This document shows, piece by piece, positions 28,860 through 45,039 of a stretch of 64,000 nt of DNA. The position numbers and the translations under genes were made by a program. The notes beneath the pieces were generated by a model. The model did not search any database and had not been told where the DNA came from. It saw only the letters and a program-made list of their open reading frames with translations. The stretch is taken from positions 70,020 through 134,019 of the forward strand of contig MHTK01000002.1 in NCBI GenBank assembly GCA_001824825.1, written 5' to 3'. Position 1 is the first letter of the stretch, and each line of letters begins with the position of its first letter. This DNA comes from Candidatus Vogelbacteria bacterium RIFOXYD1_FULL_46_19. GTDB lineage: Bacteria; Patescibacteriota; Minisyncoccia; Phycocordibacterales; XYD1-FULL-46-19.

Positions 28860-30395
28860 TTAAAGATCTTGATTATTTCCGTAGTTAACATTAACTAAGC
28901 CGGGTGAGATTTTCCCATTTATAATATCTAGGACTTTTTCAGTCACCGCTTTAGGTGGGGTGGATAGTTTTTTCAGTTCTTGGCCGTAGGTATTGATGTA
29001 AGCATCTCCGAGGGTAGAAGGGCTGATCAACGGGGTGTTGAGGTAGTAAGCTTCAAATATGTCTTGGTAGTGTCTGTTTATCTCGCTTACTAGTGAAAGC
29101 AGGGCTGAGTTGCTAACACTGTAGTTTATTAAGTGTTTGTGTTTGGCGGTTGGTTTGCCGGCTAGCCAAATTAATTTAATTTTGTGGGTCGGGCGGTTTT
29201 TAAGTAGAGCATTTAGTAATAATAAACTGCCACTAAGTTTGGTCGATATTAAATCTTTAATACCGTTTACGGTTAAATTTTCCAGATCTCCTTTACCGTT
29301 GCCGGGGTCCGCTGAAAAGATTATTACATGGGTATCCGAGGTCTCTTTTAAAAGTGTTTTTACTGAACTTGCGGAATTAATATTACACACTCTTTCATGC
29401 CAAAGTTTTTTACTGACTATTTTGGCTGATCTACTATAAAGCCATACGTCCCACCCTGCATTTTTTAGCTGGTTACCAATAGTTCTCCCTAAAGAATATT
29501 TTTTGGTTCCAGCTACTAATACTTTTGGGGTGTATCCTTTATGGGCGGTTATAAATGCCCAACCAATTTTTTTGCTTTTAACTGCACTTACTATACTTAA
29601 GTACCGGTTTTTTAGATCCCGCTCTGCTCGGCTTGGGTTGGCTACAATTTCATCCATTTGGTGAGCAAGTTTTTTGTAGGTATTTACCATATCTTCATTT
29701 TTTTGTTCAATTTTTATGTTTGAAAAAGATAGTCGTTTTAAGATTCTTTTGTAGGTAGCTGAAGATAACCCGTTGTCCCAATTAACCAGTTCTTTTATAA
29801 GTTGGGCTTCATTATTGTTTAAACTTTTGGTGGTCTCGTTTGATAAAAAGTCGGCTATAACCATAACTCCACCCGGGGCCATTAGTTCATACAAATTAGA
29901 AAATAGTTTTGATTTATTGGGTATCAAAAAAATTGCGTCTTGGCTAATAATGTGAGTAATAGTATTTTTTTGTTTAGCGAGTTTTTTGTCTATGTTGGAG
30001 GCTCTACTTCTGATAAAGCTTATATCTAGAATTCCAGCTGTTAAATTTGACGGTTTACTGTTAATTAATTTTATTTTTTTGTTGGCTTCTTTAATCATCT
30101 CATCACTAATATCTACTCCAATACCTTTGCAGTGATATTTTAAACAAATATCAATTAATGTTTGACCAGTGCCACAACCAATATCTAAAACGACAGAGCG
30201 CGAGTCTAGTGTTCTGGATGTGTTAACTTTGTTTATTAAGTGTTCTGTTGCGTTTAAGAATGACTTACTTAATGAATCATTTTTCGACGAAAACAAACCA
30301 ACGTGCAGGGTGTGATGTTTGGGATCCCACGTTTTGTCGTAATGTTTTTTTAGGGAGTTAAATTTTTTTCTAGTTTTTTCCTCGGTGGTTATCAT
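28860..30395 (-). CDS. fusion protein: class I SAM-dependent methyltransferase (CFA-synthase-like) + Rossmann NAD(P)-binding domain
   Basis: N-term HYDKTWDP...VLDIGCGTGQTLIDI motif I; C-term KVLVAGTKKYSLGRTIGNQL dinucleotide-binding-like; AT-rich codon usage distinct from flanks. Confidence 0.65.
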   Translation of the reverse strand: MITTEEKTRKKFNSLKKHYDKTWDPKHHTLHVGLFSSKNDSLSKSFLNATEHLINKVNTSRTLDSRSVVLDIGCGTGQTLIDICLKYHCKGIGVDISDEMIKEANKKIKLINSKPSNLTAGILDISFIRSRASNIDKKLAKQKNTITHIISQDAIFLIPNKSKLFSNLYELMAPGGVMVIADFLSNETTKSLNNNEAQLIKELVNWDNGLSSATYKRILKRLSFSNIKIEQKNEDMVNTYKKLAHQMDEIVANPSRAERDLKNRYLSIVSAVKSKKIGWAFITAHKGYTPKVLVAGTKKYSLGRTIGNQLKNAGWDVWLYSRSAKIVSKKLWHERVCNINSASSVKTLLKETSDTHVIIFSADPGNGKGDLENLTVNGIKDLISTKLSGSLLLLNALLKNRPTHKIKLIWLAGKPTAKHKHLINYSVSNSALLSLVSEINRHYQDIFEAYYLNTPLISPSTLGDAYINTYGQELKKLSTPPKAVTEKVLDIINGKISPGLVNVNYGNNQDL

Positions 30396-30407
30396 AATAG
30401 TCTAAAA

Positions 30408-31877
30408 TTAGATGTTATTTTTAAGTAGGTAGTCGACCATATTTCCTAATAATTTATAGGTTTTTACTCTAATTGATTCTTGGGTTTTCCACCCCGCTCT
30501 GTAAGTTAAGATGTGATTACTTAATTCGTGGCTAATTTTCCAATCAGTTTTATCTCTTATTGGTAAACCAAGTATATCTTTTCGTGGTAAACCTGGATAA
30601 ACGTCTAGAAAGGCTAATATATTGTTATTTATCATTTGGCTGGTCAGGGCTTGTTGATCAATAGCGTTTCCGTCTGCTGTATTTATAACAATTACTCCAG
30701 GTTTCATTTTTAGAATAAGTTTCTCGTTTAATGTGTTTTCAGCGTGGTGTGCCGGAAGATTGATTGAAATAATGTCCGCAATCTCAGACATTTTTTCAAG
30801 GGTTGAATACTTTATGCCAAGAGTCTTCTCCAGGTCGACTTTTCTTGTTTTAGAATAATAAATGACCTTAAAACCCATTCCGGTGGCTATTTTCGCCACT
30901 AAAAATCCAATTCTTCCCAACCCTACTATTCCGAACGTTTTACCGTTGAATGAATAAGTACTGGAAACAAGATTGCTAACATCTACGAGTTTATCTCCAA
31001 AGAGTATTTGAGATTTATTAAGATCAAATAAGTTAATATTTTTTGCCTCATAAAATATTATTTCGTTATCGGTTAAAAACTTAAAGTAACTCGCCAGTGT
31101 AGATTCGGTAAGTTGATATTGCTCGCAAATAACTCCAAGGGCCGTTAATCTTTCTATGGTAACGTTTAAGCCTTGCATATTAAGGAATCCAACTTTCCTA
31201 TTTTGGAGGAGTTTTTCTGGAATTAGGTCTTCCATATTTCTTTCGCTGAAGTCGAATTTTACTTGTCCTATTTTGTGAAAATGATGGACAAATTTACCGC
31301 GCCTAGTATTTTTTTCGTTACTTGAAAGTTTTCGGAAAAATCCAAATAAGTGATTAATAATAGTGTGCGATACCTCTTCTTGGTTTTTGGTCGAAGTGAA
31401 AGTGGTGGGGAAGTTTCTGGTGATTAATGAGAACAAACCAGCAAATACCACTTCTGAAACTGACTCCGTACCGTAGTCCGGGATATTAGTCACTTCTATA
31501 CCTAGTTTTTTAGCTAAAAGGGTGTTGATTCGATGCTCCTTTTCGTGGGTCCAAAAGATAACTAGTTTTAATTGGGGGTTCAATTTTAATATTTCATCCG
31601 GTATGTTGGTCCAACAACTAATAATAACGTCTGCACCCTCGACCCTACTCATTAGTAATTGAAGAGGAATGTTGTCGGTGGCAATTTCGGTGTAACACTT
31701 TTTACCTGTAAATACCCCCGGGTTATTCTCGTAGTCTTTTTCTAGACTTGCTGGGAGACTGGAGGGGTATTCTATTACCTCACGCGAAATACTGTTCAGA
31801 AGTTTTCGATGCTCGGGATAAAAGATTACCGTGTCTAGAATTACCACTTTATTAAATTTTTTGGCTAGGTTGATCAT
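30408..31877 (-). CDS. D-isomer-specific 2-hydroxyacid dehydrogenase family protein with ~150-aa insertion between catalytic and NAD-binding domains
   Basis: N-terminal catalytic-domain pattern (ADVIISCW...LKLVIFWT...GIEVTNIPDY...SVSEVVF) and NAD-binding GIVGLGRIGFLVAK separated by unmatched segment. Confidence 0.65.
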   Translation of the reverse strand: MINLAKKFNKVVILDTVIFYPEHRKLLNSISREVIEYPSSLPASLEKDYENNPGVFTGKKCYTEIATDNIPLQLLMSRVEGADVIISCWTNIPDEILKLNPQLKLVIFWTHEKEHRINTLLAKKLGIEVTNIPDYGTESVSEVVFAGLFSLITRNFPTTFTSTKNQEEVSHTIINHLFGFFRKLSSNEKNTRRGKFVHHFHKIGQVKFDFSERNMEDLIPEKLLQNRKVGFLNMQGLNVTIERLTALGVICEQYQLTESTLASYFKFLTDNEIIFYEAKNINLFDLNKSQILFGDKLVDVSNLVSSTYSFNGKTFGIVGLGRIGFLVAKIATGMGFKVIYYSKTRKVDLEKTLGIKYSTLEKMSEIADIISINLPAHHAENTLNEKLILKMKPGVIVINTADGNAIDQQALTSQMINNNILAFLDVYPGLPRKDILGLPIRDKTDWKISHELSNHILTYRAGWKTQESIRVKTYKLLGNMVDYLLKNNI

Positions 31878-34490: not shown

Positions 34491-34906
34491 AGGGCTATAG
34501 TAGCATAAAAGAGTTATTTTTGCAAGTAAACCGTACATAATTAGCTTAGGTAAAATAAAGGCCGATCCAGTTTGGGTATAGGGGAGGCTGGAGCGGCCTT
34601 ACTCATTGCTGTGCTGTGTAGACCTTTTTTGTCCGGTGTTAGGTGACTGGAAGGTATACGCTTTGAGTATTCCTATTTTACCTTTATTGGTTAGGCTTGT
34701 CAATCCCCCTCATATGGAATGATTCCGCTGACTGGTACCCCCAGGTTTCTCTGCGCTCAAAAGAGCAAAGCCATTCCATGTTTTTTTTGGGGGGGGTGTA
34801 CACCCCCCTGTAAATGTGCTCTAGGAGGGTCCTTAGAGTGGTAGTTTGTCTTGAAGTTGTAATATTGTGCGACTCTTTCTATACTGAATCAACAAAACTA
34901 CTAAAT

Positions 34907-35818
34907 ATGAAACTCATTGAACAACAGAAGCAAGAATTTCTCGACTACTTAGAGATTGAAAAGGGGCGGAGCTTGAAGACTCGCAGTAGTTATGATCGCT
35001 ATTTAAGCCTTTTTTTTAAGCAAACGAAAATCTCGTCCCCGACTGATATTGATGAGAATCTACTTAGAGAGTTTCGTTTGTGGTTGAATCGCCAGCCCGG
35101 TACGACCGGCACCTTGAAAAAAAATACCCAAAATTATTATTTAATTGCTCTTAGAACTTTTTTGAAGTACTTGGCGAGGCGGGGTGTTCCTTCCCTCTCG
35201 CCAGAGCGGATTGAACTGGCTAAAACGCCTGGTCGGGAGATTGATCTCTTAAATGAGGTGGAACTCGGCCGGCTACTTACTATGCCGGCCGACCAAGACG
35301 AAAAAAGTTTGAGAGATAAGGCTATTTTGGAGCTATTGTTTTCGACCGGCCTTCGGGTGTCCGAGTTAACCGGCTTAAACCGTGATTCCATTGACTTGTC
35401 TCGCGACGAGTTTAGTGTGCGAGGGAAGGGTGAAAAAGTGCGGCTGGTATTTTTGTCGCTCGACGCCAAAGAAGCTATTAAGACTTATTTAAAAAAACGA
35501 GTTGATATTGAAGAGGCTCTATTTGTGAGTTTAAAAAATAAAGTCGGTGATGCTCCGACTCGCCTCACTTCTCGTAGTGTGGAAAGAATAGTGAAGTTTT
35601 ACGCTACGAAGGCGGGTATTGGCAGTAAGGTTACCCCGCACACCATTAGGCATAGTTTTGCGACTGACCTCTTACAAAATGGGGCTGATATCCGCTCGGT
35701 GCAAGCTATGTTGGGCCACTCGAGCGTGGCCACTACCCAAATATATACTCACGTGACCGACAAGCACTTACGAGAGATTCATCAGAAATTTCACAATCGT
35801 AAAAATACTGGCTCTTAA
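34907..35818 (+). CDS. tyrosine site-specific recombinase, XerC/XerD family
   Basis: N-terminal FLDYLEIEKGRSLKTRSSYDRYL core-binding domain and C-terminal HTIRHSFATDLLQNGADIRSVQAMLGHSSVATTQIYTHV (R..H..R...Y); start at MKLIEQQKQ. Confidence 0.85.
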   Translation: MKLIEQQKQEFLDYLEIEKGRSLKTRSSYDRYLSLFFKQTKISSPTDIDENLLREFRLWLNRQPGTTGTLKKNTQNYYLIALRTFLKYLARRGVPSLSPERIELAKTPGREIDLLNEVELGRLLTMPADQDEKSLRDKAILELLFSTGLRVSELTGLNRDSIDLSRDEFSVRGKGEKVRLVFLSLDAKEAIKTYLKKRVDIEEALFVSLKNKVGDAPTRLTSRSVERIVKFYATKAGIGSKVTPHTIRHSFATDLLQNGADIRSVQAMLGHSSVATTQIYTHVTDKHLREIHQKFHNRKNTGS

Positions 35819-36139: not shown

Positions 36140-37612
36140 CTACTTGACACCGTGACGCTGACGAATTTTTTTTAGCTCCTTATTCTCGGTCTCACTCTTT
36201 TTTTCTTTACCTTGGGCGGCTAGTTTGGCTAATTCTTTATCCCCCAATTCATTAAGATCTTTAGCTCGGTTTAATAAGTATTCCTTGGTATTTTGGGTGG
36301 GCTCGTCGAGTACCTCTTCCAATAGAGCATGCAAAATTTGCCCGATTTGGGGACCAGGTTTCACGTGCAACTCGTTCATTAAGTCATTCCCGTCAATTTT
36401 TAGCATAGTGACCGAGGTGGGGCTACGCAAGGCCTCTTCAATCATCGATTCGTATTTTCTCAAGCGATAAGGGTGTTCCTTGGGCCGGCCCATACCGATT
36501 CGGTCGCTGGTGCGTAGCTTCATCAAGTCCCAGACATTGTTCTCCCCCACTTTGGCTATAATTCGGCGGACGGCTGACAAGGTAATTTGATCAACATCCA
36601 CAAAAAACATATGGTTTCTAACCAGTTTTTCCACCACCTCGGCAGTTTTAGACGGGTATTTTAGGTCGGCCATAATTTTCTGTACCAGTCGCGCTCCCAC
36701 TACCTCATGACCGTAAAAGGTCCAGTCATTTTTCTCTTTAATCCAGCGCCTGGTGGCTGGTTTACCAATGTCATGAAACAGAGCCGCTAGACGTAGGTGA
36801 AGGGGGAAGTCTCTCTCAGCGGCGTGTTGCAAAGCTCGGAGCGAGTGTTCCCAGACATCAAAGATATGATCCCCGTTTTGCTCAGTGCCGATTGCTGGTA
36901 CTAAGTCGGGTAAAACGTGCGGTAAAAGTTCAAGCTTGGAGATAAGCTGTAGACCCATCATTGGTCTTTTAGACATAATAATCTTGTTAAATTCTTCACG
37001 CAGTCTTTCTTTAGAAATCCGTCCGAGTAAGCCCGCCTCTGCCTCGATGGCTTGCTCAGTCACCGGGTCAATACTAAAGCCTAGCTCGGTAGCCAAGCGG
37101 ACAGCCCTAAGCAGGCGCAAGGCATCTTCGCGGAAGCGCTCGGTGGGTGAGCCGACGGTTTTGATGATCTTGTCCTTTATATCAGCTACTCCCCCAAACA
37201 GATCAATAAGTTGTCCTTTATCAAGATTATAGGCTAGGGCATTAATGGTGAAGTCGCGACGAGCTAAATCATCTTCTATCGATTCGGCAAAGTGGACTTG
37301 ATCTGGGTGGCGGTGGTCAGTGTACTCAGATTCAGTGCGGTATGGAGTAACCTCGACATTTTTTAAAGTTGGGTCATCGGTGTCCTCATTCACGATTGTG
37401 ACTGTGCCGAAGCGGTTTTCGTAAAAAGTCTTAGTAAATAAGGCCTCAATCTCAGAGGGAGTGGCTTTGGTAGTAATATCCCAGTCTTTAGGTTCGCGGT
37501 TCATTAGGCTGTCACGAACACAGCCTCCCACAATAAAAGCCTCAAAACCAGCATTTTCCAGGGTTTTGGTTATACGTGAAACTTCTTTTGGGACTGGTAA
37601 CGATATTTTCAT
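36140..37612 (-). CDS. cca: CCA-adding tRNA nucleotidyltransferase with HD domain
   Basis: GGCVRDSLM...DWDITT polymerase-beta motif, RRDFTINA, HD motif FHDIGK; start at MKISLP (ORF 5' extension overlaps tRNA-Arg). Confidence 0.85.
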   Translation of the reverse strand: MKISLPVPKEVSRITKTLENAGFEAFIVGGCVRDSLMNREPKDWDITTKATPSEIEALFTKTFYENRFGTVTIVNEDTDDPTLKNVEVTPYRTESEYTDHRHPDQVHFAESIEDDLARRDFTINALAYNLDKGQLIDLFGGVADIKDKIIKTVGSPTERFREDALRLLRAVRLATELGFSIDPVTEQAIEAEAGLLGRISKERLREEFNKIIMSKRPMMGLQLISKLELLPHVLPDLVPAIGTEQNGDHIFDVWEHSLRALQHAAERDFPLHLRLAALFHDIGKPATRRWIKEKNDWTFYGHEVVGARLVQKIMADLKYPSKTAEVVEKLVRNHMFFVDVDQITLSAVRRIIAKVGENNVWDLMKLRTSDRIGMGRPKEHPYRLRKYESMIEEALRSPTSVTMLKIDGNDLMNELHVKPGPQIGQILHALLEEVLDEPTQNTKEYLLNRAKDLNELGDKELAKLAAQGKEKKSETENKELKKIRQRHGVK

Positions 37613-37637
37613 AAAGAAACTAGTACTCCACTTGTGT

Positions 37638-37708
37638 GCTCTCGGAGGGACTCGAACCCCCAACGACGGTTCCGAAGACCGTTGTGATATCCATTTCACC
37701 ACGAGAGC
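37638..37708 (-). tRNA. tRNA-Arg (anticodon TCG)
   Basis: Manual fold: acceptor GCTCTCG/CGAGAGC, D stem GTGA/TCAC, anticodon stem ACGGT/ACCGT loop CTTCGGA, T arm GGGGG-TTCGAGT-CCCTC, discriminator A; no encoded CCA. Confidence 0.8.
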
Positions 37709-37790
37709 CTAATGGCCATAGAATAGCGTGGAATTGAAAAAAAAGCGAATTTTTTAGGTTGTTTACTCTCGAGGAATAGTAAGTATTATA

Positions 37791-37989
37791 TGTGCGGGTA
37801 GGGAGAATCGGTCAGGAATATCTTGCCCTCCGTCGAGGACAAGATTTCACGACCCTGGCTCACCTGTTTTTCTTGCTAGAAAAACATAGTTCCGCCTTTC
37901 GATTCTCCACGCAAGTAAAGCAGTTTACTTGCTCATTCCGTCACTAAAACCACAAAAAACCAGGTTAAAACCTGGTTTTTTGTGGTTAG
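37791..37989 (-). repeat. tRNA-Gly trailer module copy A: terminator + ~150-nt structured core + 18-19-nt direct repeat of tRNA-Gly(GCC) 3' end
   Basis: Reverse complement of 43354..43555 is near-identical (150-nt core 100% identical); 37793-37810 tgcgggtagggagaatcg repeats tRNA 3' end at 37990-38007. Confidence 0.8.
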
Positions 37990-38060
37990 TGCGGGTAGGG
38001 AGAATCGAACTCCCGACTCGTCCTTGGCAAGGACGTGTTCTACCACTAAACCATACCCGC
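37990..38060 (-). tRNA. tRNA-Gly (anticodon GCC)
   Basis: Manual fold: acceptor GCGGGTA/TACCCGC, anticodon stem CGTCC/GGACG loop TTGCCAA, T arm GGGAG-TTCGATT-CTCCC, discriminator A. Confidence 0.8.
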
Positions 38061-38205
38061 TACTTTTTACTTCCCTAGTATAGCTAATTTATGGCGATAG
38101 TAAAGAAGTTTAAGCAAAATATGTTAACCTGTAAGTGTAAGGAAGCTTTAGCCCAGCAGTCTAATAATTATAAGGAAGGTATAAAATATATAATTCTTTT
38201 TATTT

Positions 38206-38742
38206 ATGAATAAATCCGTTGGTATAGTGGTAGCAGTGATTGTTTTACTCATATTGTTGGGTCTATGGGCGGCATTTAAAGAAAATGAGGAGCAAATCAT
38301 CCCAATAGACGACGATGACTCACCGGCTACCCAAGAGATAAGTCTGTTTTTTCTCAATGAAGACCGTTTTGCTGTGGGAACAGAGCCTTATGAGGATGGA
38401 GTCACTCGCTCTATTCCCGCCTCTAGCGAGGCTAAACAGGCGGTAATTAGCGCCCTTTACGCTGGACCAACAGCGGATGAAACCGACCAATCACTACGTA
38501 TGGTTTATAGCGAGTCGACGGGCGCCAGGGTAGACTTTGACGAAGCCACAGGCACTGCCTCGGTTTATTTAGAGAGTGGCTGTAATAGTGCTGGGGCGAC
38601 TTATACGGTGGCTAATTTAATAATCAGGAATCTAGAGCAGTTTTCAGACGTAAATCGGGTTATTATCTATGATCCGGAGGGTGAAACCTTAGGCTCTGAG
38701 ACAGATATTGGTAATTTGGTCCCCGCTTGTTTACAACCGTAG
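38206..38742 (+). CDS. secreted GerMN-like domain protein
   Basis: Signal/TM anchor, acidic linker, then pattern ISALYAGPT...ASVYLESGC...NRVIIYD reminiscent of GerMN (germination/sporulation lipoprotein-like) domain. Confidence 0.5.
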   Translation: MNKSVGIVVAVIVLLILLGLWAAFKENEEQIIPIDDDDSPATQEISLFFLNEDRFAVGTEPYEDGVTRSIPASSEAKQAVISALYAGPTADETDQSLRMVYSESTGARVDFDEATGTASVYLESGCNSAGATYTVANLIIRNLEQFSDVNRVIIYDPEGETLGSETDIGNLVPACLQP

Positions 38743-38797
38743 TTGGGCTGGCTTTTAGACTCAAGTGTCCCCTAGCTACCCCAACCGTGGCTTATAA

Positions 38798-38826
38798 ATA
38801 TCGCTTAGTTGAGCGATATTTTGTTA
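38798..38826 (+). terminator. putative terminator after GerMN-like gene
   Basis: atatcgct-tagttg-agcgatat hairpin followed by tttgtt. Confidence 0.45.
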
Positions 38827-39059
38827 AAAAAGTGGATAACCTTGGGGACAATGTGTATAACGGACAGTCTTTTTAAAGTAGAGTTTGTCTTTTTACAATG
38901 AGAGAATATTGAAATTATGTTGATAGATAAGGCTTTTACTGGAAAATAAAGGAAAATGGTTAATTCTCAAGAGAAAATCCTAATTTGGTTACATATGTAA
39001 CACTTTCTATAAAAGTTATACATGAAACTTTAACTTAAGGATGTGCTAAACTTTAGTTA

Positions 39060-39455
39060 ATGACGGCGAAAGCTCGATTGGGAGCCCTGGGGGAACAGGT
39101 AGCGGCTAAATATCTAAAGCAAGCCGGCTTTAAAGTGGTGGCACAAAATTACCGGAAACCCTGGGGAGAAATTGACCTAGTGGCTACTAAAGGAGGAAAT
39201 CTTCACTTTGTGGAAGTGAAAACAGTCACTAAAGCCGAGAATGTTTTACATGAAACAGGGGAGCAGGGTGATGATTATGAGCCGGCCGACAATATTCACC
39301 CCTGGAAGTTGAAGCGCCTGGCTCGGGCGATGGAAAGCTTTATGCTTGATCAGAACATTCCCGAAGAGGTGGACTATCAGTTGGATGCCATTTTGGTCTA
39401 CTTAAGCCCTAAGGAGCAGGTGCTTAAAATAGAGTATTTACCGGATATTTTTTAG
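39060..39455 (+). CDS. YraN/UPF0102 family endonuclease-like protein
   Basis: GALGEQVAAKYLKQAGFKVVAQNYRKPWGEIDLVA and FVEVKT motifs typical of UPF0102. Confidence 0.75.
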   Translation: MTAKARLGALGEQVAAKYLKQAGFKVVAQNYRKPWGEIDLVATKGGNLHFVEVKTVTKAENVLHETGEQGDDYEPADNIHPWKLKRLARAMESFMLDQNIPEEVDYQLDAILVYLSPKEQVLKIEYLPDIF

Positions 39456-39520
39456 TAAATTGGTCATAAAAGTGTTGGTTTTTTAAGAAGTTTCGTGTTA
39501 CGATGGGGGAGTTAAAAAAT

Positions 39521-39546
39521 GGGACGTGGTGTAACGGCTAACATTT
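39521..39546 (+). repeat. partial copy of tRNA-Pro 5' half (acceptor-5'/D-arm, 26 nt)
   Basis: gggacgtggtgtaacggctaacatt identical to positions 2-27 of tRNA-Pro at 39576..39648 but followed by sequence that cannot complete a cloverleaf. Confidence 0.7.
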
Positions 39547-39575
39547 TTGGTTTGCCTGTCCGCCAAAGCCAGAGC

Positions 39576-39648
39576 CGGGACGTGGTGTAACGGCTAACAT
39601 TCTCGGTTTGGGACCGAGCGATTCCGGGTTCGAATCCCGGCGTCCCGA
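39576..39648 (+). tRNA. tRNA-Pro (anticodon TGG)
   Basis: Manual fold: acceptor CGGGACG/CGTCCCG, D stem GTGT/ACAT, anticodon stem CTCGG/CCGAG loop TTTGGGA (G37), T arm CCGGG-TTCGAAT-CCCGG, discriminator A. Confidence 0.8.
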
Positions 39649-39669
39649 AAGGGGGCGATGGCAGGTGGG

Positions 39670-39707
39670 GGACCGAGCGATTCCGAGTTCGAATCTCGGC
39701 GTCCCGA
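39670..39707 (+). repeat. partial copy of tRNA-Pro 3' half (anticodon-stem 3' strand through discriminator, 38 nt) with compensatory T-stem substitutions
   Basis: ggaccgagcgattccgAgttcgaatcTcggcgtcccga vs tRNA ggaccgagcgattccgGgttcgaatcCcggcgtcccga; the two differences keep the T stem paired. Confidence 0.75.
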
Positions 39708-39757
39708 CAAAAAAACCACCAAAGACTCCGCTTAAGCGGGGTCTTTGGTGGTTTTAT
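39708..39757. terminator. strong bidirectional intrinsic terminator after tRNA-Pro cluster
   Basis: A7 - accaccaaagactccgc ttaa gcggggtctttggtggt - T4; 17-bp stem. Confidence 0.7.
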
Positions 39758-39925
39758 AAAACTAGTTCGATCAAATCCAACGAAGCTAAATACACTTTTC
39801 GTGTTCATAAAATAAGTACCCGCATTATTTATTGATTGACAAACTGGCTTTTATTGAGCAGGCTAATCAATAGTATTGTTGTGTTCTAGTGTTATTGTAA
39901 TATAGTCAACGAAGGAGGATTTCTG

Positions 39926-40342
39926 ATGAAACGTGAATTTAGCCTCTTGTTGCTAGTGGTGGTGGTTACGTTGGTGGTCGGCTGTCCCACGACAGTGCCG
40001 GGGGAGCGAGAATACTGGATCACGATCGAAAACCACACTGACATGGAGCTGACAGAGTTGTATATTAGCCCCTGCGGTGAAAGTTACTGGGGCGACAACT
40101 GGCTAGTAGGATCCATCGATCCCTGGACGTCCCACTACGAGGTTCTATTTGCCAACCAGTGTTGGGATATCCGGATTGTGTCGGAGTATGGAAACACAAT
40201 GACGACTCAGTTGTTTTTAGACTCCGACTACCTGATTCCTGTCTACCAAAGCAAGTCGGGTCAGTTGCTCGGAGAGAGCGAGGAAGCCTACTGGGAAGAT
40301 GGTGATTTTCTCTTAAAAGAATATCCACCACCCACCGAGTAA
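39926..40342 (+). CDS. small secreted lipoprotein-like protein
   Basis: Signal peptide with LVVGC lipobox-like motif; W/Y/E-rich mature part, 4 Cys. Confidence 0.5.
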   Translation: MKREFSLLLLVVVVTLVVGCPTTVPGEREYWITIENHTDMELTELYISPCGESYWGDNWLVGSIDPWTSHYEVLFANQCWDIRIVSEYGNTMTTQLFLDSDYLIPVYQSKSGQLLGESEEAYWEDGDFLLKEYPPPTE

Positions 40343-40531
40343 CCAGTGCTCGAATCGTTTGCCGTCCCTATCAACAGTAGGGGCGGCACTTCATTTCCGG
40401 AGTTTTTTGATTTCATAGTCAACTTAATATCTCGAGTAAAATTTTTAACTTTTTATCTTGACAGGTTTTTATTAATAATGGACAATGCCCAGCAGATTTA
40501 GTAGTGGTTACACAACTGGGAGGAGACTATA

Positions 40532-41284
40532 ATGCCAAAGCCCAAGTGGAGCGACTTCTGTTTTTTGTTCGTGTTTGGGGCGTCAATGGCTAGCTTGTGT
40601 TTGGTGGAGGCTTACTTAGACGGGTCAGCTTTAAAGCTCGATGTGATTCTCGGCGTCGTTATCGGAGTGCTTGTTACGGTGGTCTACACCGGATTCCGTT
40701 GGTTTGATTGGGACAGGCGAAACGAGGCCATGGTCGAGATCTTACGTTATCATCCGAATGATATCGAAGTCTTTCTCGGGCGGTGGGGTGTGCGGGTGAC
40801 GGCGCAAACCTTCGTCTGTGATATGGCGTTGTTTCGTCAGCATTCGGCCAAATATCTCGGCGCGGTGTTAGCTAAGCTCCTGGAGTATAAGCTTGACCGT
40901 AATGGCTGTCGGCCCGACTACCGCTATAGTGGTCAGTCAGCCTACACCGACTTGGTGCGGATGGCGGTGGTAGCTTACGATCAAGCTAGTCTGCCTAAAG
41001 GCTTTGTCACAGGTTTGAAAAATTACTCGGCTTGCGCGGAATATGAGTTGAGACGAGCGGTAGCGGCGGTGGATTACTATGACCGCCTCACAAGTTGGAC
41101 GACAGAATTGCACGAAATGGAGGAGCGGTTTGCGGGTGAACGCGAGGAGGCAGTGCAAGCTTCTTTAACACCGGTTGCCACTGTTCGGTTGTGGAACTGG
41201 ACCTGGTGCAAGTTGAGCCGGTTGCGACCCACGATTTGGGCGCCCACTTGGACCGCCCCGGCGGTCAAAGAGGCAAAACTCTAA
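40532..41284 (+). CDS. hypothetical membrane-anchored protein in GC-rich patch
   Basis: 250 aa, two N-terminal hydrophobic segments; local GC clearly higher than flanks. Confidence 0.5.
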   Translation: MPKPKWSDFCFLFVFGASMASLCLVEAYLDGSALKLDVILGVVIGVLVTVVYTGFRWFDWDRRNEAMVEILRYHPNDIEVFLGRWGVRVTAQTFVCDMALFRQHSAKYLGAVLAKLLEYKLDRNGCRPDYRYSGQSAYTDLVRMAVVAYDQASLPKGFVTGLKNYSACAEYELRRAVAAVDYYDRLTSWTTELHEMEERFAGEREEAVQASLTPVATVRLWNWTWCKLSRLRPTIWAPTWTAPAVKEAKL

Positions 41285-41405
41285 ACAGATATCCGGTGCC
41301 TCCTTTGAAATTTCTCAAGGGAAGCACCGGTTTTTTGATGCGGGTAATAATATTGACAAAACGCTTAAATTTGTTATAATATAAGAAGATTAAAAAAGGG
41401 GAGGA

Positions 41406-41699
41406 ATGAATATGACTTGGGAGCGCGTTTTTAATTTTTTGGCGGCGGCAGTGACTTTTGTCTGGCGCGAGCTCTTGGGTCCCGTTGTCACCGGCTTGGT
41501 TCGGGGCGCTGGCGAGGGCTTACGAGCGGTGGCCCGGCGACTCGTCCCGCCAGTGGCCGTGGTCGGCCTCTTGGTCCTCTGGTACCGGACCAACCCGGAG
41601 AGTCTGGCCGACTCAATCGGTCTCGTGGTTTTCTTGGGCCTCTTGGCCTGGGTTGGTCGCGAGTGGTTCCGGGCGGCCTTCTCCGGGCGAAGGCGATGA
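41406..41699 (+). CDS. hypothetical small membrane protein in GC-rich patch
   Basis: 97 aa, two TM segments, Arg-rich C-terminus; very GC-rich codons. Confidence 0.4.
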   Translation: MNMTWERVFNFLAAAVTFVWRELLGPVVTGLVRGAGEGLRAVARRLVPPVAVVGLLVLWYRTNPESLADSIGLVVFLGLLAWVGREWFRAAFSGRRR

Positions 41700-41924
41700 G
41701 GGTGTTTCGAGCCGAGGGAAATCTCCTTCGGCTCTTATTTTATACACTTTTATATACAGACAAGTTCTAGCTGATTGACTTTTTTACTGTTTCTGTTATA
41801 CTAGACAGCGTGCGTGTAAATATCTCAAAAAGTTTTCTCTCCAGGTGTATACAAACGCGAGGGAGCAGAGATCAGTATGAGGGGTCGTTACTTCGCATAT
41901 GTTAATAAGTTAAATTGTATACAC

Positions 41925-42191
41925 ATGGCTAAGAAGTTATACGTTGGTGGTTTGCCTTACTCTACCACTGACAGTGAACTCCAGGAGGCTTTTGCTCAGG
42001 CCGGTGCAGTTTCTTCGGCAACCATCATCATGGACCGAATGACTGGCCGTTCCAAGGGCTTTGGTTTCGTTGAGTTTGAAAACGATGGCGACGCTGACAA
42101 AGCGATCGACATGTGGAATGGCAAAGACTTTGGTGGACGGAATCTAACCGTCAACGAAGCTCGCCCGCTCGAAGAGCGACCTCGCCGCTAA
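41925..42191 (+). CDS. RRM-domain RNA-binding protein
   Basis: RNP2 KLYVGGLPY and RNP1 KGFGFVEF motifs; start at MAKKLYV. Confidence 0.85.
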   Translation: MAKKLYVGGLPYSTTDSELQEAFAQAGAVSSATIIMDRMTGRSKGFGFVEFENDGDADKAIDMWNGKDFGGRNLTVNEARPLEERPRR

Positions 42192-42217
42192 CCGTAAGGT
42201 TACGACTGGTTTCTACC

Positions 42218-42246
42218 AAAAAAACCGCCCCAAGGGCGGTTTTTTG
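42218..42246 (+). terminator. intrinsic terminator after RRM gene
   Basis: A7 - ccgcccc aag gggcgg - T7. Confidence 0.7.
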
Positions 42247-42346
42247 TTTTAGGTTGATTTAGATGTTTTTATAAAAATATTAAAGCCGAAGTTACAGTGG
42301 TGTGTGCAACTTCGGCTTTACGAACAGAAACCTCCCCCGCGATATG

Positions 42347-42664
42347 TCATTTTTCCGACCTTCCATGGTGTTGGTGTATCTCCCACGTGTGCGTGATGGC
42401 CGCCTTGGCCCCGCTCCAAATCATGGTGGCCACGATAATTTGAGGCGGATTTTTAGGATTAGTTGGAACAAGTATCCGAAGTTCCTCACTTTGCAGTTTG
42501 GGATACACATCGGAGTTAAATCTGAGAGTGATGCTGGCGCCGTCTGGATTGTGGGAAATCTCAGAGACAACACCTCTATGTCTCGGGGCCACAGTTCCTC
42601 TGGCCGCGTTTATTATTTTGTCATCTAGCGACAAGTTGCGCACTTCAAGCAACACTAGGATCAC
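42347..42664 (-). CDS. hypothetical protein
   Basis: 105-aa ORF more protein-like than overlapping + strand ORF; no motif recognised. Confidence 0.3.
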   Translation of the reverse strand: MILVLLEVRNLSLDDKIINAARGTVAPRHRGVVSEISHNPDGASITLRFNSDVYPKLQSEELRILVPTNPKNPPQIIVATMIWSGAKAAITHTWEIHQHHGRSEK

Positions 42665-42806
42665 CTCCTTTCTGGTGCGGTGGAAATGGGTTTAGTTTCG
42701 ATCACAAAGAACAGATACCCTCATTTTAATAGGGTCGGAATTTATGTCAATGTCAACAATTCCCGTAAGGATGGCTCTCTTCTTTTGGTCGTGATAAAAT
42801 TTATCA

Positions 42807-43220
42807 ATGCCAATTATATTTTTGCTGGTAATTTTAGTGGTCGCGGTGGTGGGTGGGGTGACCAGTGGGTATATAAAGTATCACCGCCGACACGGAAAAA
42901 AATTAGAATGCGCTATTACTACCGATTGTGAGCAGTTATTTTCCAGTTCTTACGAGGCTTGGCGGGGGATAGATAATGAAAAGCTTGGTTTATGGTTTTT
43001 TGGCTTAGTGATTGCTTTTGCGGTCCTTGGGGCGGTGGTAGGGGTTTATTGGTGGCTTAAGGTAGGTTTGCTCTTGGTGACCATGGCTGGAGCCGGGTAT
43101 GGAATTTATTTAATCCACGCCCAAATTAGAGTGATTAAGCACTGGTGCACTTGGTGTTTGGTGCCGACCGTTTCGGCGGTAATCATTCTCTTGGCGGTGT
43201 TGGGGTTACTGGCAGCTTAA
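42807..43220 (+). CDS. VKOR-like (vitamin K epoxide reductase family) membrane thiol oxidoreductase
   Basis: 4 TM helices; loop CAITTDC...SSSYEAW and in-membrane CTWC redox motif. Confidence 0.5.
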   Translation: MPIIFLLVILVVAVVGGVTSGYIKYHRRHGKKLECAITTDCEQLFSSSYEAWRGIDNEKLGLWFFGLVIAFAVLGAVVGVYWWLKVGLLLVTMAGAGYGIYLIHAQIRVIKHWCTWCLVPTVSAVIILLAVLGLLAA

Positions 43221-43282
43221 ATTTTCAGATTGAAACGGCCGAGCAATTTTGCTAGTATGCCTGGTGTTACTCTGTAACATAT

Positions 43283-43353
43283 GCGGGATTAGTTAAATGG
43301 TATAATATCAGTTTTCCAAACTGAGGTTGGGAGTTCGATTCTCCCATCCCGCA
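43283..43353 (+). tRNA. tRNA-Gly (anticodon TCC)
   Basis: Manual fold: acceptor GCGGGAT/ATCCCGC, D stem GTTA/TAAT, anticodon stem TCAGT/ACTGA loop TTTCCAA, T arm GGGAG-TTCGATT-CTCCC, discriminator A. Confidence 0.75.
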
Positions 43354-43555
43354 CAAACCACAAAAGACCGGATTTTAACCTGGTCTTTTTTTGGTTTTAG
43401 TGACGGAATGAGCAAGTAAACTGCTTTACTTGCGTGGAGAATCGAAAGGCGGAACTATGTTTTTCTAGCAAGAAAAACAGGTGAGCCAGGGTCGTGAAAT
43501 CTTGTCCTCGACGGAGGGCAAGATATTCCTGACCGATTCTCCCATCCCGCACAAA
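43354..43555 (+). repeat. tRNA-Gly trailer module copy B: terminator + ~150-nt structured core + 22-nt direct repeat of tRNA-Gly(TCC) 3' end
   Basis: 43534-43555 cgattctcccatcccgcacaaa = 43336-43357; core identical to reverse complement of 37811-37960. Confidence 0.8.
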
Positions 43556-43584
43556 AATTTACCCACCAGACGTGATCTGGTGGG

Positions 43585-44088
43585 TTAGTCGGCAAAACTG
43601 GAAACGATGTCGTAGTGGCAATCAAGGACTATGCCTTGATTGGACCCAGGTTGATACTTGCACCACCCACGTATTTTTTGGTCAGACAAGATGAGTGGTA
43701 GAAAGGTGTAGTCGCCAGCCATCATCTCCACTTGGCGGGGGTTGGCGATCAAGTCAGAAATGTTAAACCACTGACCTTTGACCATTTCCTCACTGTCCTG
43801 GGGCTCACCCTGGTACTTGGTGGTGGTGAAAATATGGACCAAGAACTCTGAATCCGGCCCGTTGTGGAAGGTGATTTCCGCCACTTTAATCAGGTCGGAG
43901 GCTACGAGCTTGACCTCGGTTTCTTCCCGGGTTTCGCGCACGGCCGTTTCTGGTGGGGTTTCGCCCACTTCACATTTACCACCCGGCCCGGTGTACTTAC
44001 CGATACCGATTTTTCCGGTTTTACGGCCCATAAATACTTGGCCATTCCTGTTGGATATAAAAACCAGTGCGCCCACTTTTTTACTCAT
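43585..44088 (-). CDS. NUDIX hydrolase
   Basis: Nudix box GGKCEVGETPPETAVRETREETEV. Confidence 0.85.
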   Translation of the reverse strand: MSKKVGALVFISNRNGQVFMGRKTGKIGIGKYTGPGGKCEVGETPPETAVRETREETEVKLVASDLIKVAEITFHNGPDSEFLVHIFTTTKYQGEPQDSEEMVKGQWFNISDLIANPRQVEMMAGDYTFLPLILSDQKIRGWCKYQPGSNQGIVLDCHYDIVSSFAD

Positions 44089-44205
44089 AGTATTTCTCCG
44101 GTTAGGGTTTCTGACTCAACTCTACCATCATTATTATTTAGCACAAGTCTACTCTTTTGAAAAAGTTTGCTACAATCGGAGGCGTAATAACTAACTTAAT
44201 TTACC

Positions 44206-45039
44206 ATGCTGACATACTGTTATGCTAAGGGAAAAATTGTCCGTTTAAGCCAAGCGACTGTTCCGGCCAATGATCTGGCGATTTTGCGCGGTTACGCCGT
44301 GTTTGATTTTACCCGCATTTATAACGGCCGGCCGTTTCACCTTAAAGATCATTGGGCTCGTTTCAATCGCTCGGCTCGGGAGCTGGATCTTAAGGTACCG
44401 GTTAAGCTAACAGAAGTTGAACAGGCAATTAGTGATCTCTTAAAAAAGAACAAGGTTAAAGATGCTTCCGTCCGCCTGGTGTTGACCGGTGGGGCTAGTG
44501 TGGACTCTATAGCTAAAGGCCCGGCCGAATTTTTTATCTTAATGGATTATCATTATAACTTACCCCCGGCAGTTTTTACGGAGGGAGCTCGGTTGATAAC
44601 CTATGAGTTACAACGGGTACTACCGACGGCTAAAAATACCAATTATGCAGCGGCGGTAAAACTACAGAAGGATCTAAAAAAGGCTAAAGCGGTCGAGGTG
44701 CTCTATGTTAACAATGGTGCCATTTTAGAGTGTTCGACCAGTAATTTTTTTATCGTTAAAAACAAAGTGATAATAACGCCGAAAGATAAAATTTTGACCG
44801 GGGTGACTCGTCAGATCGTGCTTAGACTGGCACGGAAAAAATATAAAATAGAGGAGCGGTCGCTTAAGTTTGTCGAGCTTAAAACCGCCGACGAGGCTTT
44901 CTTAACCGCGAGCAATAAATACGTGACCCCGGTAGTGAAAGTGGATGAGATGGTGATCGGATCTGGTCGGGTTGGCGAGGTGACTAAAGAGTTACTCGCG
45001 ACCTATCACGAAGAAATAAAGAAAGAGTGTTATAGCTAA
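44206..45039 (+). CDS. class IV aminotransferase (branched-chain/D-amino-acid aminotransferase or aminodeoxychorismate-lyase-like)
   Basis: Fold-type IV pattern (FDFTRIY..., VLTGGAS, E..FLTAS..V.PV..VD). Confidence 0.7.
   Translation: MLTYCYAKGKIVRLSQATVPANDLAILRGYAVFDFTRIYNGRPFHLKDHWARFNRSARELDLKVPVKLTEVEQAISDLLKKNKVKDASVRLVLTGGASVDSIAKGPAEFFILMDYHYNLPPAVFTEGARLITYELQRVLPTAKNTNYAAAVKLQKDLKKAKAVEVLYVNNGAILECSTSNFFIVKNKVIITPKDKILTGVTRQIVLRLARKKYKIEERSLKFVELKTADEAFLTASNKYVTPVVKVDEMVIGSGRVGEVTKELLATYHEEIKKECYS

Follow-up and report, generated by a model that had tools for sequence, protein, structure and literature searches.

A tRNA-Pro gene probably nested in an older, split tRNA-Pro gene in a Candidatus Vogelbacteria genome

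In a 64,000-nucleotide stretch of the Candidatus Vogelbacteria bacterium RIFOXYD1_FULL_46_19 genome (contig MHTK01000002.1, positions 70,020 to 134,019; here called the window), the tRNA-Pro(UGG) gene at positions 39576 to 39648 is flanked on both sides by partial copies of a proline tRNA gene. According to our analysis, the stretch most probably represents a tRNA-Pro(UGG) gene nested in an older tRNA-Pro(UGG) gene, which was split around the inserted gene; we put the probability of this reading at about 0.85. The mode of insertion that we propose further below is considerably more tentative, and the combined statement of structure and mode is held with an assurance lying between the two, as a rather probable one.

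The intact gene is the single tRNA-Pro called by both ARAGORN and Rfam (Rfam tRNA score of 61.6 bits), among a total of four tRNAs found by ARAGORN in the window, in agreement with the one intact tRNA-Pro(TGG) that the original prediction, made from the letters of the stretch alone, had expected from a tRNA scan. Upstream of it, a repeat finder detected a 34-nucleotide (nt) copy (39521 to 39554; family D4) that is 94% identical to positions 39577 to 39610, with its first 25 nt exact and an exact 24-mer match to the intact gene. Together with T39520, this copy represents tRNA positions 1 to 35, its end falling exactly after nucleotide 35, and it also includes the anticodon-stem 5' strand, with two C>T changes (TTTGG). 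Downstream, a 38-nt copy (39670 to 39707) begins 21 nt past the intact gene and exactly at nucleotide 36. It differs from the intact gene at two positions only (52 G>A and 62 C>T), which leave the T stem paired (CCGGG/CCCGG to CCGAG/CTCGG); a fainter similarity extends back to 39664, the segment from 39664 to 39707 being a 44-nt, 91% copy of 39605 to 39648 (family D2). The chance expectation for either copy was 0 matches in 100 shuffles. Furthermore, a 470-nt region is 100% identical across six assemblies (L015 to L020, the L numbers designating the loci compared here) that come from different samples and different assemblers, and because of this identity we consider the nested tRNA-Pro structure to be real and a misassembly to be excluded. 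The partial copies on both sides of the gene, as originally predicted, are therefore confirmed by the repeat finder, the shuffles, and the six assemblies, and the 38-nt copy with its two compensatory T-stem changes is confirmed by alignment; a misassembled tandem tRNA array, which the same prediction had named as the finding that would speak against it, is ruled out.

When 39520 to 39554 is joined to 39670 to 39707, the resulting 73 nt take up a cloverleaf fold, which ARAGORN recognizes as a canonical tRNA-Pro(tgg) having TTTGGGA as its loop. The insert between the halves (39555 to 39669; 115 bp) lies between nucleotides 35 and 36 (TTTG|GGA) and is wholly accounted for by arms, linkers, and one tRNA, in the order CCTGTCCGCC, AAAGCCAGAGC, intact tRNA, AAGGG, GGCGATGGCAGG, TGGG; an integrase gene is absent. 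At the junctions, TTTG|CCTGTC and GGTGGG|GGACCG, the resident sequence is merely interrupted, with neither a duplication nor a repeated attachment (att) core. The location of the break in the anticodon loop, already proposed in the original prediction, is thus borne out. The further view that the flanking copies are independent scars is not: joining them at 39554|39670 gives a second full tRNA, an outcome that the same prediction had named as speaking against it. The features of the locus are listed below.

39495 to 39513, + strand: conserved upstream motif GTGTTACGATGGGGGAGTT, possible promoter region of the resident gene (aligns with TGTTAGGATAGGGGAGT of L197 and L194)
39520 to 39554, + strand: outer tRNA-Pro 5' half, positions 1 to 35, with the acceptor 5' strand, D arm, anticodon-stem 5' strand TTTGG, and loop TTTG (family D4, 24-mer match, ARAGORN on the joined halves)
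39555 to 39564, + strand: left arm of the insert, CCTGTCCGCC (complementary to 39654 to 39665, 10 bp with a 2-nt bulge)
39565 to 39575, + strand: 11-nt linker AAAGCCAGAGC (read directly from the sequence)
39576 to 39648, + strand: inner intact tRNA-Pro(UGG), functional gene (ARAGORN, Rfam, identity with L197 and L021)
39649 to 39669, + strand: right side of the insert, with linker AAGGG, right arm GGCGATGGCAGG (39654 to 39665), and TGGG (39666 to 39669) (pairs with the left arm)
39670 to 39707, + strand: outer tRNA-Pro 3' half, positions 36 to 73, with loop GGA, anticodon-stem 3' strand, variable loop, T arm, acceptor 3' strand, and discriminator A (family D2, pattern match, nhmmer profile)
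39712 to 39755, + strand: palindromic hairpin of 22 bp, terminator-like, at the close of the transcription unit (inverted repeat I4 with 95% complementarity, family D1)

In the closest relatives, L197 and L194, the motif TGTTAsGATrGGGGAGT stands 7 to 8 nt before tRNA-Pro, and the alignment places the window copy of this motif 7 nt upstream of the 5' half and not in front of the intact gene. In the same way, the terminator-like hairpin comes after the 3' half, not after the intact gene. Moreover, the T stem of the outer allele (CCGAG/CTCGG) is the usual state in the clade (L193/L194, L002, and L001), and that of the inner gene (CCGGG/CCCGG) is held in common with L197. Based on the upstream motif, the hairpin, and the clade T stem, we recognize in the outer halves the old gene in its native frame and in the inner gene a newcomer. 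The inner tRNA-Pro is identical to that of L197 at 72/73 positions, and its first 46 nt are identical to the tRNA of the sister strain L021. The outer and inner alleles differ at five sites, namely, three C>T changes that make G-U pairs (C1T, C27T, and C29T, the only differences between the outer 5' half and the inner gene) and two that are both sides of a T-stem pair. The origin of the downstream half from a different, once-functional tRNA-Pro allele, another point of the original prediction, is well founded, its T stem being common in relatives.

The scan for consensus (sigma-70) promoters and terminators between 39380 and 39930 called nothing, the hairpin at 39712 to 39755 included, and for this reason we assign GTGTTACGATGGGGGAGTT a promoter role only as a possibility. 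ARAGORN with the intron option returned the inner gene only and no split outer tRNA, and the Rfam scan of 36500 to 44500 (E ≤ 10) gave four tRNAs and noise, with no intron, ribozyme, or known small-RNA family on the insert or on the tRNA-Gly modules described below. The nhmmer tRNA-Pro profile matched the 3' half at positions 34 to 72 (E = 5.7e-5). The motif GGCGATGGCAGGTGGG occurs exactly in L001 and in a related form in L197, and no similarity was found elsewhere for the linker AAAGCCAGAGC. With regard to the terminator-like hairpin, we could notice that the hairpins of family D1 (A tract, palindrome, T tract), 68 to 70% alike, lie at 37938 to 37987, 39704 to 39753, and 43346 to 43395, directly 3' of three tRNA ends, including those of both tRNA-Gly genes; they look like bidirectional terminators, but none of them is called by the simple terminator scan.

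Relatives of the locus were collected by a protein search with the neighboring YraN, which gave 14 syntenic loci from reference genomes and 80 from metagenomes, and the closest ones were obtained by exact protein look-up; orphan halves outside annotated genes were sought with a profile of 72 proline tRNAs. The gene order tRNA-Arg / tRNA-Gly, YraN, tRNA-Pro is general in the clade. The layout consisting of a 5' half, an arm, a whole tRNA-Pro, an arm, and a 3' half was found in the window and in at least seven related loci of Paceibacteria (L081, L001, L040, L032/L034, L052, and L055), and the nested loci include all three isoacceptors (TGG in L081 and L001, CGG in L040 and L032/L034, and GGG in L052 and L055). 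In every nested locus the 3' half starts at profile position 34/35, and the insert is uniformly tiny in every locus found. Nested insertion is therefore shown to be a recurrent process in Paceibacteria.

In particular, three of these loci show which strands belong together. The outer 5' and outer 3' acceptor strands form 7/7 Watson-Crick pairs with each other in L040, L081, and L052, and the cross-pairings with the inner strands reach 4 and 4 in L040, 6 and 6 in L081, and 6 and 6 in L052. Since the outer acceptor strands pair better together in these loci, the intact gene is not a chimera of host and element. Furthermore, L052 and L055 are nested reciprocally: the outer halves of L052 match the inner gene of L055 at 31/31 and 34/37 positions, and the outer halves of L055 match the inner gene of L052 at 29/31 and 36/37, with the coding DNA of the two genomes being only 70 to 75% identical. 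The outer genes also form a decay series, as they are canonical in the window, nearly intact in L081, L052, and L055, and damaged or half missing in L032, L040, L001, L055-CGG, and L070. This series favors relics of different ages and therefore a repeated process.

A separate observation concerns L001, where two successive tRNA-Pro 3' halves with differing T stems and acceptor strands follow one intact gene (1546 to 1684), which is flanked by a 13-bp perfect inverted repeat; this segment looks like a multilayer nest.

The arms of the insert are joined as a hairpin, GGCGATGGCAGG-TGGG-CCTGCCCGCC, in L001, and as stem P3 of the tRNA-Pro module in L197. Their complementarity exceeds that of shuffles in L081, L040, L052, L055, and L001 (0/2000 as stable; z of -4.4 to -5.9) and in L032 (p = 0.01). 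The relatives share an arm skeleton, TTGCCC...ATCTTTT / AAAAGAT...GGGTGAA, of which the window arms are a variant. We also compared the arms with those of miniature inverted-repeat transposable elements: terminal inverted repeats are present (10 positions match, with one gap of 2 nt, when CCTGTCCGCC is aligned to GGCGATGGCAGG in reverse complement; p = 0.19 for the window alone), no duplication was found at the junctions, and the arm motif occurs once in the 64-kb window, not in the many copies that such elements have. Ends of the IS200/IS605 type were not adopted as an explanation, the arms being complementary to each other and having no hairpin of their own. In the viral contigs, the variant 3' half had 0 DNA matches. 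Apart from the nested loci, a hairpin resembling the window arm motif (CCTGCCCGTCC GGCAGGCGGG) lies at about 2690 to 2730 of L033, inside the YraN-matched region, and the YraN match of that locus exceeds the usual length by about 11 residues; a small hairpin may have been inserted there into a coding region.

It is possible to hypothesize, with a confidence that falls somewhat short of an even chance, how such nests are formed. A small, selfish, nonautonomous, hairpin-ended cassette would enter the anticodon loop of a proline tRNA gene together with its own copy of the gene, and because it brings this copy, the cell would survive the disruption of an essential tRNA gene. Transcription would start at the resident promoter and stop at the resident terminator, giving a single transcript from which RNase P and 3' processing enzymes would release the inner tRNA, and the outer halves would from then on be a mere leader and trailer, decaying over time. 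The best candidate for the driving force is repair of the double-strand-break or homing type, set off by a family of free-standing HNH endonucleases that is tightly linked to tRNA-Pro(UGG) genes; alternatively, a hairpin-specific recombinase could act in trans.

The HNH family was recognized in the sister strain L021, whose YraN is 98% identical to that of the window and where an open reading frame (ORF) for an HNH endonuclease (469 to 849) lies between YraN and the same tRNA; this locus has no 5' half, and its contig ends inside the tRNA. The family comprises proteins of about 125 amino acids, with homologues common in Patescibacteria. All 8 Patescibacteria HNH loci that we examined (L021, L198, L199, L202, L205, L207, L209, and L044) have an intact tRNA-Pro(TGG) 16 to 115 nt downstream of the ORF. 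When the sequence upstream of the ORF is read directly, each of them also has a decayed 5' part of a tRNA-Pro, with its end in the T loop, which the tRNA-Pro profile search confirmed only in L198, L205, and L044. Between the HNH gene and tRNA-Pro of L205, and before its tRNA-Ala, we could also observe truncated tRNA-like 5' fragments (1916 to 1942 and 2147 to 2173), and tRNA fragments seem common in genomes of this kind. The single-query search of the viral contigs found no close HNH relative, and the profile search gave matches. The best phage homologue, in the T4-like cyanophage Synechococcus phage S-CAM3 (NC_031906.1, 183804 to 184224), overlaps a tRNA-Pro(TGG) and has the same upstream remnant, and the homologue of Klebsiella phage DP lies within a tRNA cluster; among the 80 best viral HNH homologue loci of the profile search, 22 have a tRNA-Pro(TGG) within 1.2 kb. 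In its behavior, the HNH family resembles the free-standing homing endonucleases known from phage tRNA regions, and it is plausible as the source of breaks and replacement events at the tRNA-Pro gene.

Several observations weigh against the nested reading or against the mode of insertion proposed for it. The inner and outer acceptor stems are alike in the window, so that the case for the halves belonging together rests there on the exact 35|36 fit and on the relatives, and no closely related empty allele, that is, an uninterrupted outer gene, occurs among the fetched relatives. The junctions are unclean in L081, L052, and L055, where 1 to 2 extra nt give loops of 8 to 9 nt. The pairing of the window arms is not better than that of shuffles (p = 0.19), and it is therefore not used as evidence for the window. 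The arm skeleton stays the same around different cargo tRNAs, and this is not fully explained by a simple model of a cassette moving with its cargo. Moreover, there is no recombinase or endonuclease gene in or beside the insert, no HNH homologue in the 64-kb window, and no copy of the cassette was found on viral contigs. Finally, the link between the HNH family and insertion at 35/36 is circumstantial, because the HNH-linked relics end in the T loop.

Two other explanations are both unlikely, and we rate them about equally. The first, which the original prediction favored, supposes that a tyrosine-integrase element entered the anticodon loop, that its own 3' half restored the gene and displaced the host half (attR), that it was later deleted down to 21 nt, and that the upstream copy is a separate scar. 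An anticodon-loop attR would indeed keep position 36 onward, the neighboring T-loop modules obey an attL/attR logic (the distal copy in L197, CTCGGCGCC, being an older allele than its gene), and a XerC/D-type recombinase gene lies about 4 kb away (34814 to 35818), although it looks like a housekeeping XerC/D. However, the junctions (TTTG|CCTG and TGGG|GGA) have no common core or overlap, the 5' half stands at its native position and ends exactly where the 3' half starts, and together the halves give a canonical tRNA. In L040, L081, and L052, the displaced 3' half is matched by the 5' strand of the intact gene at 4, 6, and 6 positions, compared to 7/7 for the outer 5' half, and a large element later lost is difficult to reconcile with the same tiny insert size in every example. 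A conservative site-specific crossover with a 6- to 8-bp core was also considered and rejected, as the junctions have no shared overlap.

According to the second, the nest is a functional precursor in which the arm helix holds the outer halves, these being trimmed and ligated after release of the inner tRNA, so that one transcript yields two proline tRNAs. In this respect, the outer tRNA of the window is canonical once joined, all five differences between the alleles keep pairing (three G-U pairs and one compensatory pair), the arm helix is kept despite sequence change across loci, and the outer halves are nearly identical to live alleles in genomes about 25% apart in coding DNA. In addition, the 35/36 site is favored by self-splicing group I introns in Patescibacteria tRNAs (PMC13011429). 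Against this stand the absence of a ribozyme core (no Rfam match) in an insert of which only 42 nt are not tRNA, G35 in place of the U needed for group I splicing, the damage to the outer halves in L032, L040, L001, L055-CGG, and L070, and the 8- to 9-nt junction loops of L081, L052, and L055. We know of no bacterial enzyme set that would excise and ligate such a precursor, and since the inner and outer genes read the same codons, a second copy would bring no obvious gain.

An explanation by two events is slightly less probable still. In this case, the upstream half would be left over from an arrangement of 5' relic, HNH gene, and tRNA-Pro after deletion of the HNH gene, and the downstream half would derive from a module-type insertion. 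In the sister strain L021, the HNH gene occupies precisely this position, a tRNA-Pro 5' relic lies upstream of the endonuclease gene in all HNH loci, and the right arm of the window resembles the module end of L197; on the other hand, the HNH-linked relics reach the T loop and not position 35, chance would have to account for the exact 35|36 fit, a single hairpin contains both the left and the right arm in L001 and L197, and matched halves occur in relatives without HNH. A decayed tandem array of three proline tRNA genes, the first having lost its 3' part and the last its 5' part, is quite improbable: proline isoacceptor genes do lie 20 to 40 nt apart in L066 (TGG-GGG), L067 (CGG-TGG), L087 (TGG-CGG), and L027 (CGG-GGG), but the two window halves are both UGG halves with an exact joint at 35|36, the breakpoints coincide in seven loci, the outer halves of L081, L040, and L052 fit one another more closely than they fit the middle gene, and the arms are complementary. 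An assembly artefact of a tandem tRNA array, to which the short L021 contig ending inside the tRNA might point, as repeats sometimes cause such ends, can be dismissed in view of the identical 470 nt in six independent assemblies.

The proline nest is not the only insertion at tRNA genes in this region. Modules follow the tRNA-Gly genes (GCC and TCC) at 37791 to 37988 (- strand) and 43355 to 43555 (+ strand), each made up of a hairpin, a core of about 150 nt in which the two modules share 98% identity, and a 19- to 22-nt copy of the 3' end of its own tRNA; each distal copy follows the TA/AT acceptor-strand difference of its own tRNA. Self-comparison of relatives showed that modules of this family follow many Arg, Gly, Leu, and Pro genes, in more than 20 related loci. 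Their conserved structure comprises hairpin 1, a segment that is complementary to the T loop and stem of the host tRNA and forms pairs with the distal copy, and another two stems; the paired cells amount to 91%, compared to 69% in shuffles, and covariation is strong, 27/34 pairs having compensatory changes. With an acceptor stem and an extended T stem, the modules have the look of tRNA-like elements. A target-site duplication was rejected, given that the distal copy in L197 is a different and older allele than the gene, and an attL/attR-type insertion in the T loop therefore fits instead. In the viral contigs, the module hairpin had 0 DNA matches, and a module 14-mer had 91 matches, none with the flanking module motifs, for which reason these were treated as chance. 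The tRNA-Gly modules are a separate, widespread family of structured, T-loop-targeting elements, distinct from the proline nest. The original prediction that the tRNAs of this region were repeatedly used as insertion targets is accordingly supported, also in related genomes, with the qualification that the tRNA-Gly modules differ in kind from the proline insert.

In L193 (3557 to 3900), L051, L077, and L084, the T-loop modules are stacked or in tandem, with two modules in a row after one tRNA, each having its own tRNA 3' copy, and suggest repeated insertions at the same gene. In the window, the modules at 37791 to 37958 and 43386 to 43553 form a 168-nt, 98% inverted repeat around a 5.4-kb segment that includes YraN, tRNA-Pro, and several small ORFs. 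Since tRNA-Pro and tRNA-Gly are not oriented in the same way with respect to YraN in all relatives, an inversion of this segment is conceivable. Elsewhere in the window, the region from 28860 to 31877 has a low G+C content (0.34 over 30 to 32 kb, compared to about 0.45 elsewhere) and two large ORFs of 511 and 489 amino acids on the - strand; it may be foreign DNA.

The recurrence of nested insertion in three isoacceptors, the relics of different ages, and the one reciprocal pair suggest that tRNA-Pro alleles in these reduced genomes change by overwriting and not by point mutation, through a cassette scarcely larger than the tRNA itself. The HNH family, which accompanies tRNA-Pro(UGG) in phages as well as in Patescibacteria, is a candidate tRNA-gene-specific homing enzyme. 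The elements of about 150 nt at the 3' ends of many tRNA genes represent a second, apparently undescribed family of structured elements. Moreover, in candidate-phyla genomes, both the annotation of tRNAs and the tRNA-based detection of islands will be confused by tRNA halves and nested genes of this kind. If the functional nested precursor were true, a bacterial tRNA would have another tRNA as its "intron", at the 35/36 intron site of Patescibacteria.

Among known systems, tRNA-targeting integrative elements and free-standing homing endonucleases come nearest to the proline nest. Tyrosine-integrase elements are said to target tRNA genes at anticodon-loop and T-loop sublocations, as reportedly described by Reiter in 1989 and Williams in 2002. 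The proline nest resembles such elements in the insertion into a loop, in the tRNA sequence that keeps the gene working, and in the displaced fragment left as a marker. Different from them, the window insert carries a whole tRNA and not a 3' segment, both old halves remain, and its 115 bp contain no integrase gene or repeated att core. Nor did we find the intact gene to be chimeric, with its 5' part from the host and its 3' part from an element, as the displaced 5' half is present, the window alleles themselves being too alike to tell.

Free-standing homing endonucleases occur in phage tRNA clusters, such as SegB of T4 and the HNH enzymes of T5, and they spread by break repair with co-conversion of neighboring markers. 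The HNH family is similar to them in its link to tRNA-Pro(UGG) in phages, in Patescibacteria, and in the sister strain L021, whereas the window has no endonuclease gene; to our knowledge, nested split-gene products have not been described for these enzymes. In the split, intron-containing, and permuted tRNAs of the archaeal type (Nanoarchaeum, Caldivirga, and Cyanidioschyzon), the halves are required and are joined by a bulge-helix-bulge endonuclease and a ligase. Like them, the nest has halves interrupted within the anticodon loop, next to sequences able to pair, but its host is bacterial, the space between the halves is occupied by an intact copy, and relatives show the halves in decay. Judged from the fold by eye, the arms make an intron-intron helix that lacks 3-nt bulges at 35/36, and a bulge-helix-bulge geometry is not evident; the adjoining YraN (UPF0102) is a nuclease-fold protein.

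Group I introns have been reported at 35/36 of Patescibacteria tRNA genes (Nakagawa et al. 2026, PMC13011429). They have in common with the nest the phylum, the unusual site, and the fact of being missed by standard tRNA finders. They are also expected to have a U as the last nucleotide of the 5' exon and a size of about 200 nt or more (PMC13011429), compared to which the window insert has G at nucleotide 35, no ribozyme core, and a length of 115 nt, 73 of them belonging to the tRNA that it contains and 42 being non-tRNA.

The tRNA gene fragments of prokaryotes have been attributed to annotation errors and to by-products of integration (bioRxiv 10.1101/2022.07.05.498093). The halves described here resemble such fragments as partial, noncanonical tRNA genes beside real ones, and the nested replacement of a whole gene is a specific architecture that goes beyond that work. 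In the literature on tRNA-like RNAs or miniature integrative elements in Parcubacteria, nothing relevant was found. We file the proline nest as a new variant of tRNA-targeting insertion, in which the gene is split at the anticodon loop and a whole replacement gene is supplied, instead of the 3' end being restored.

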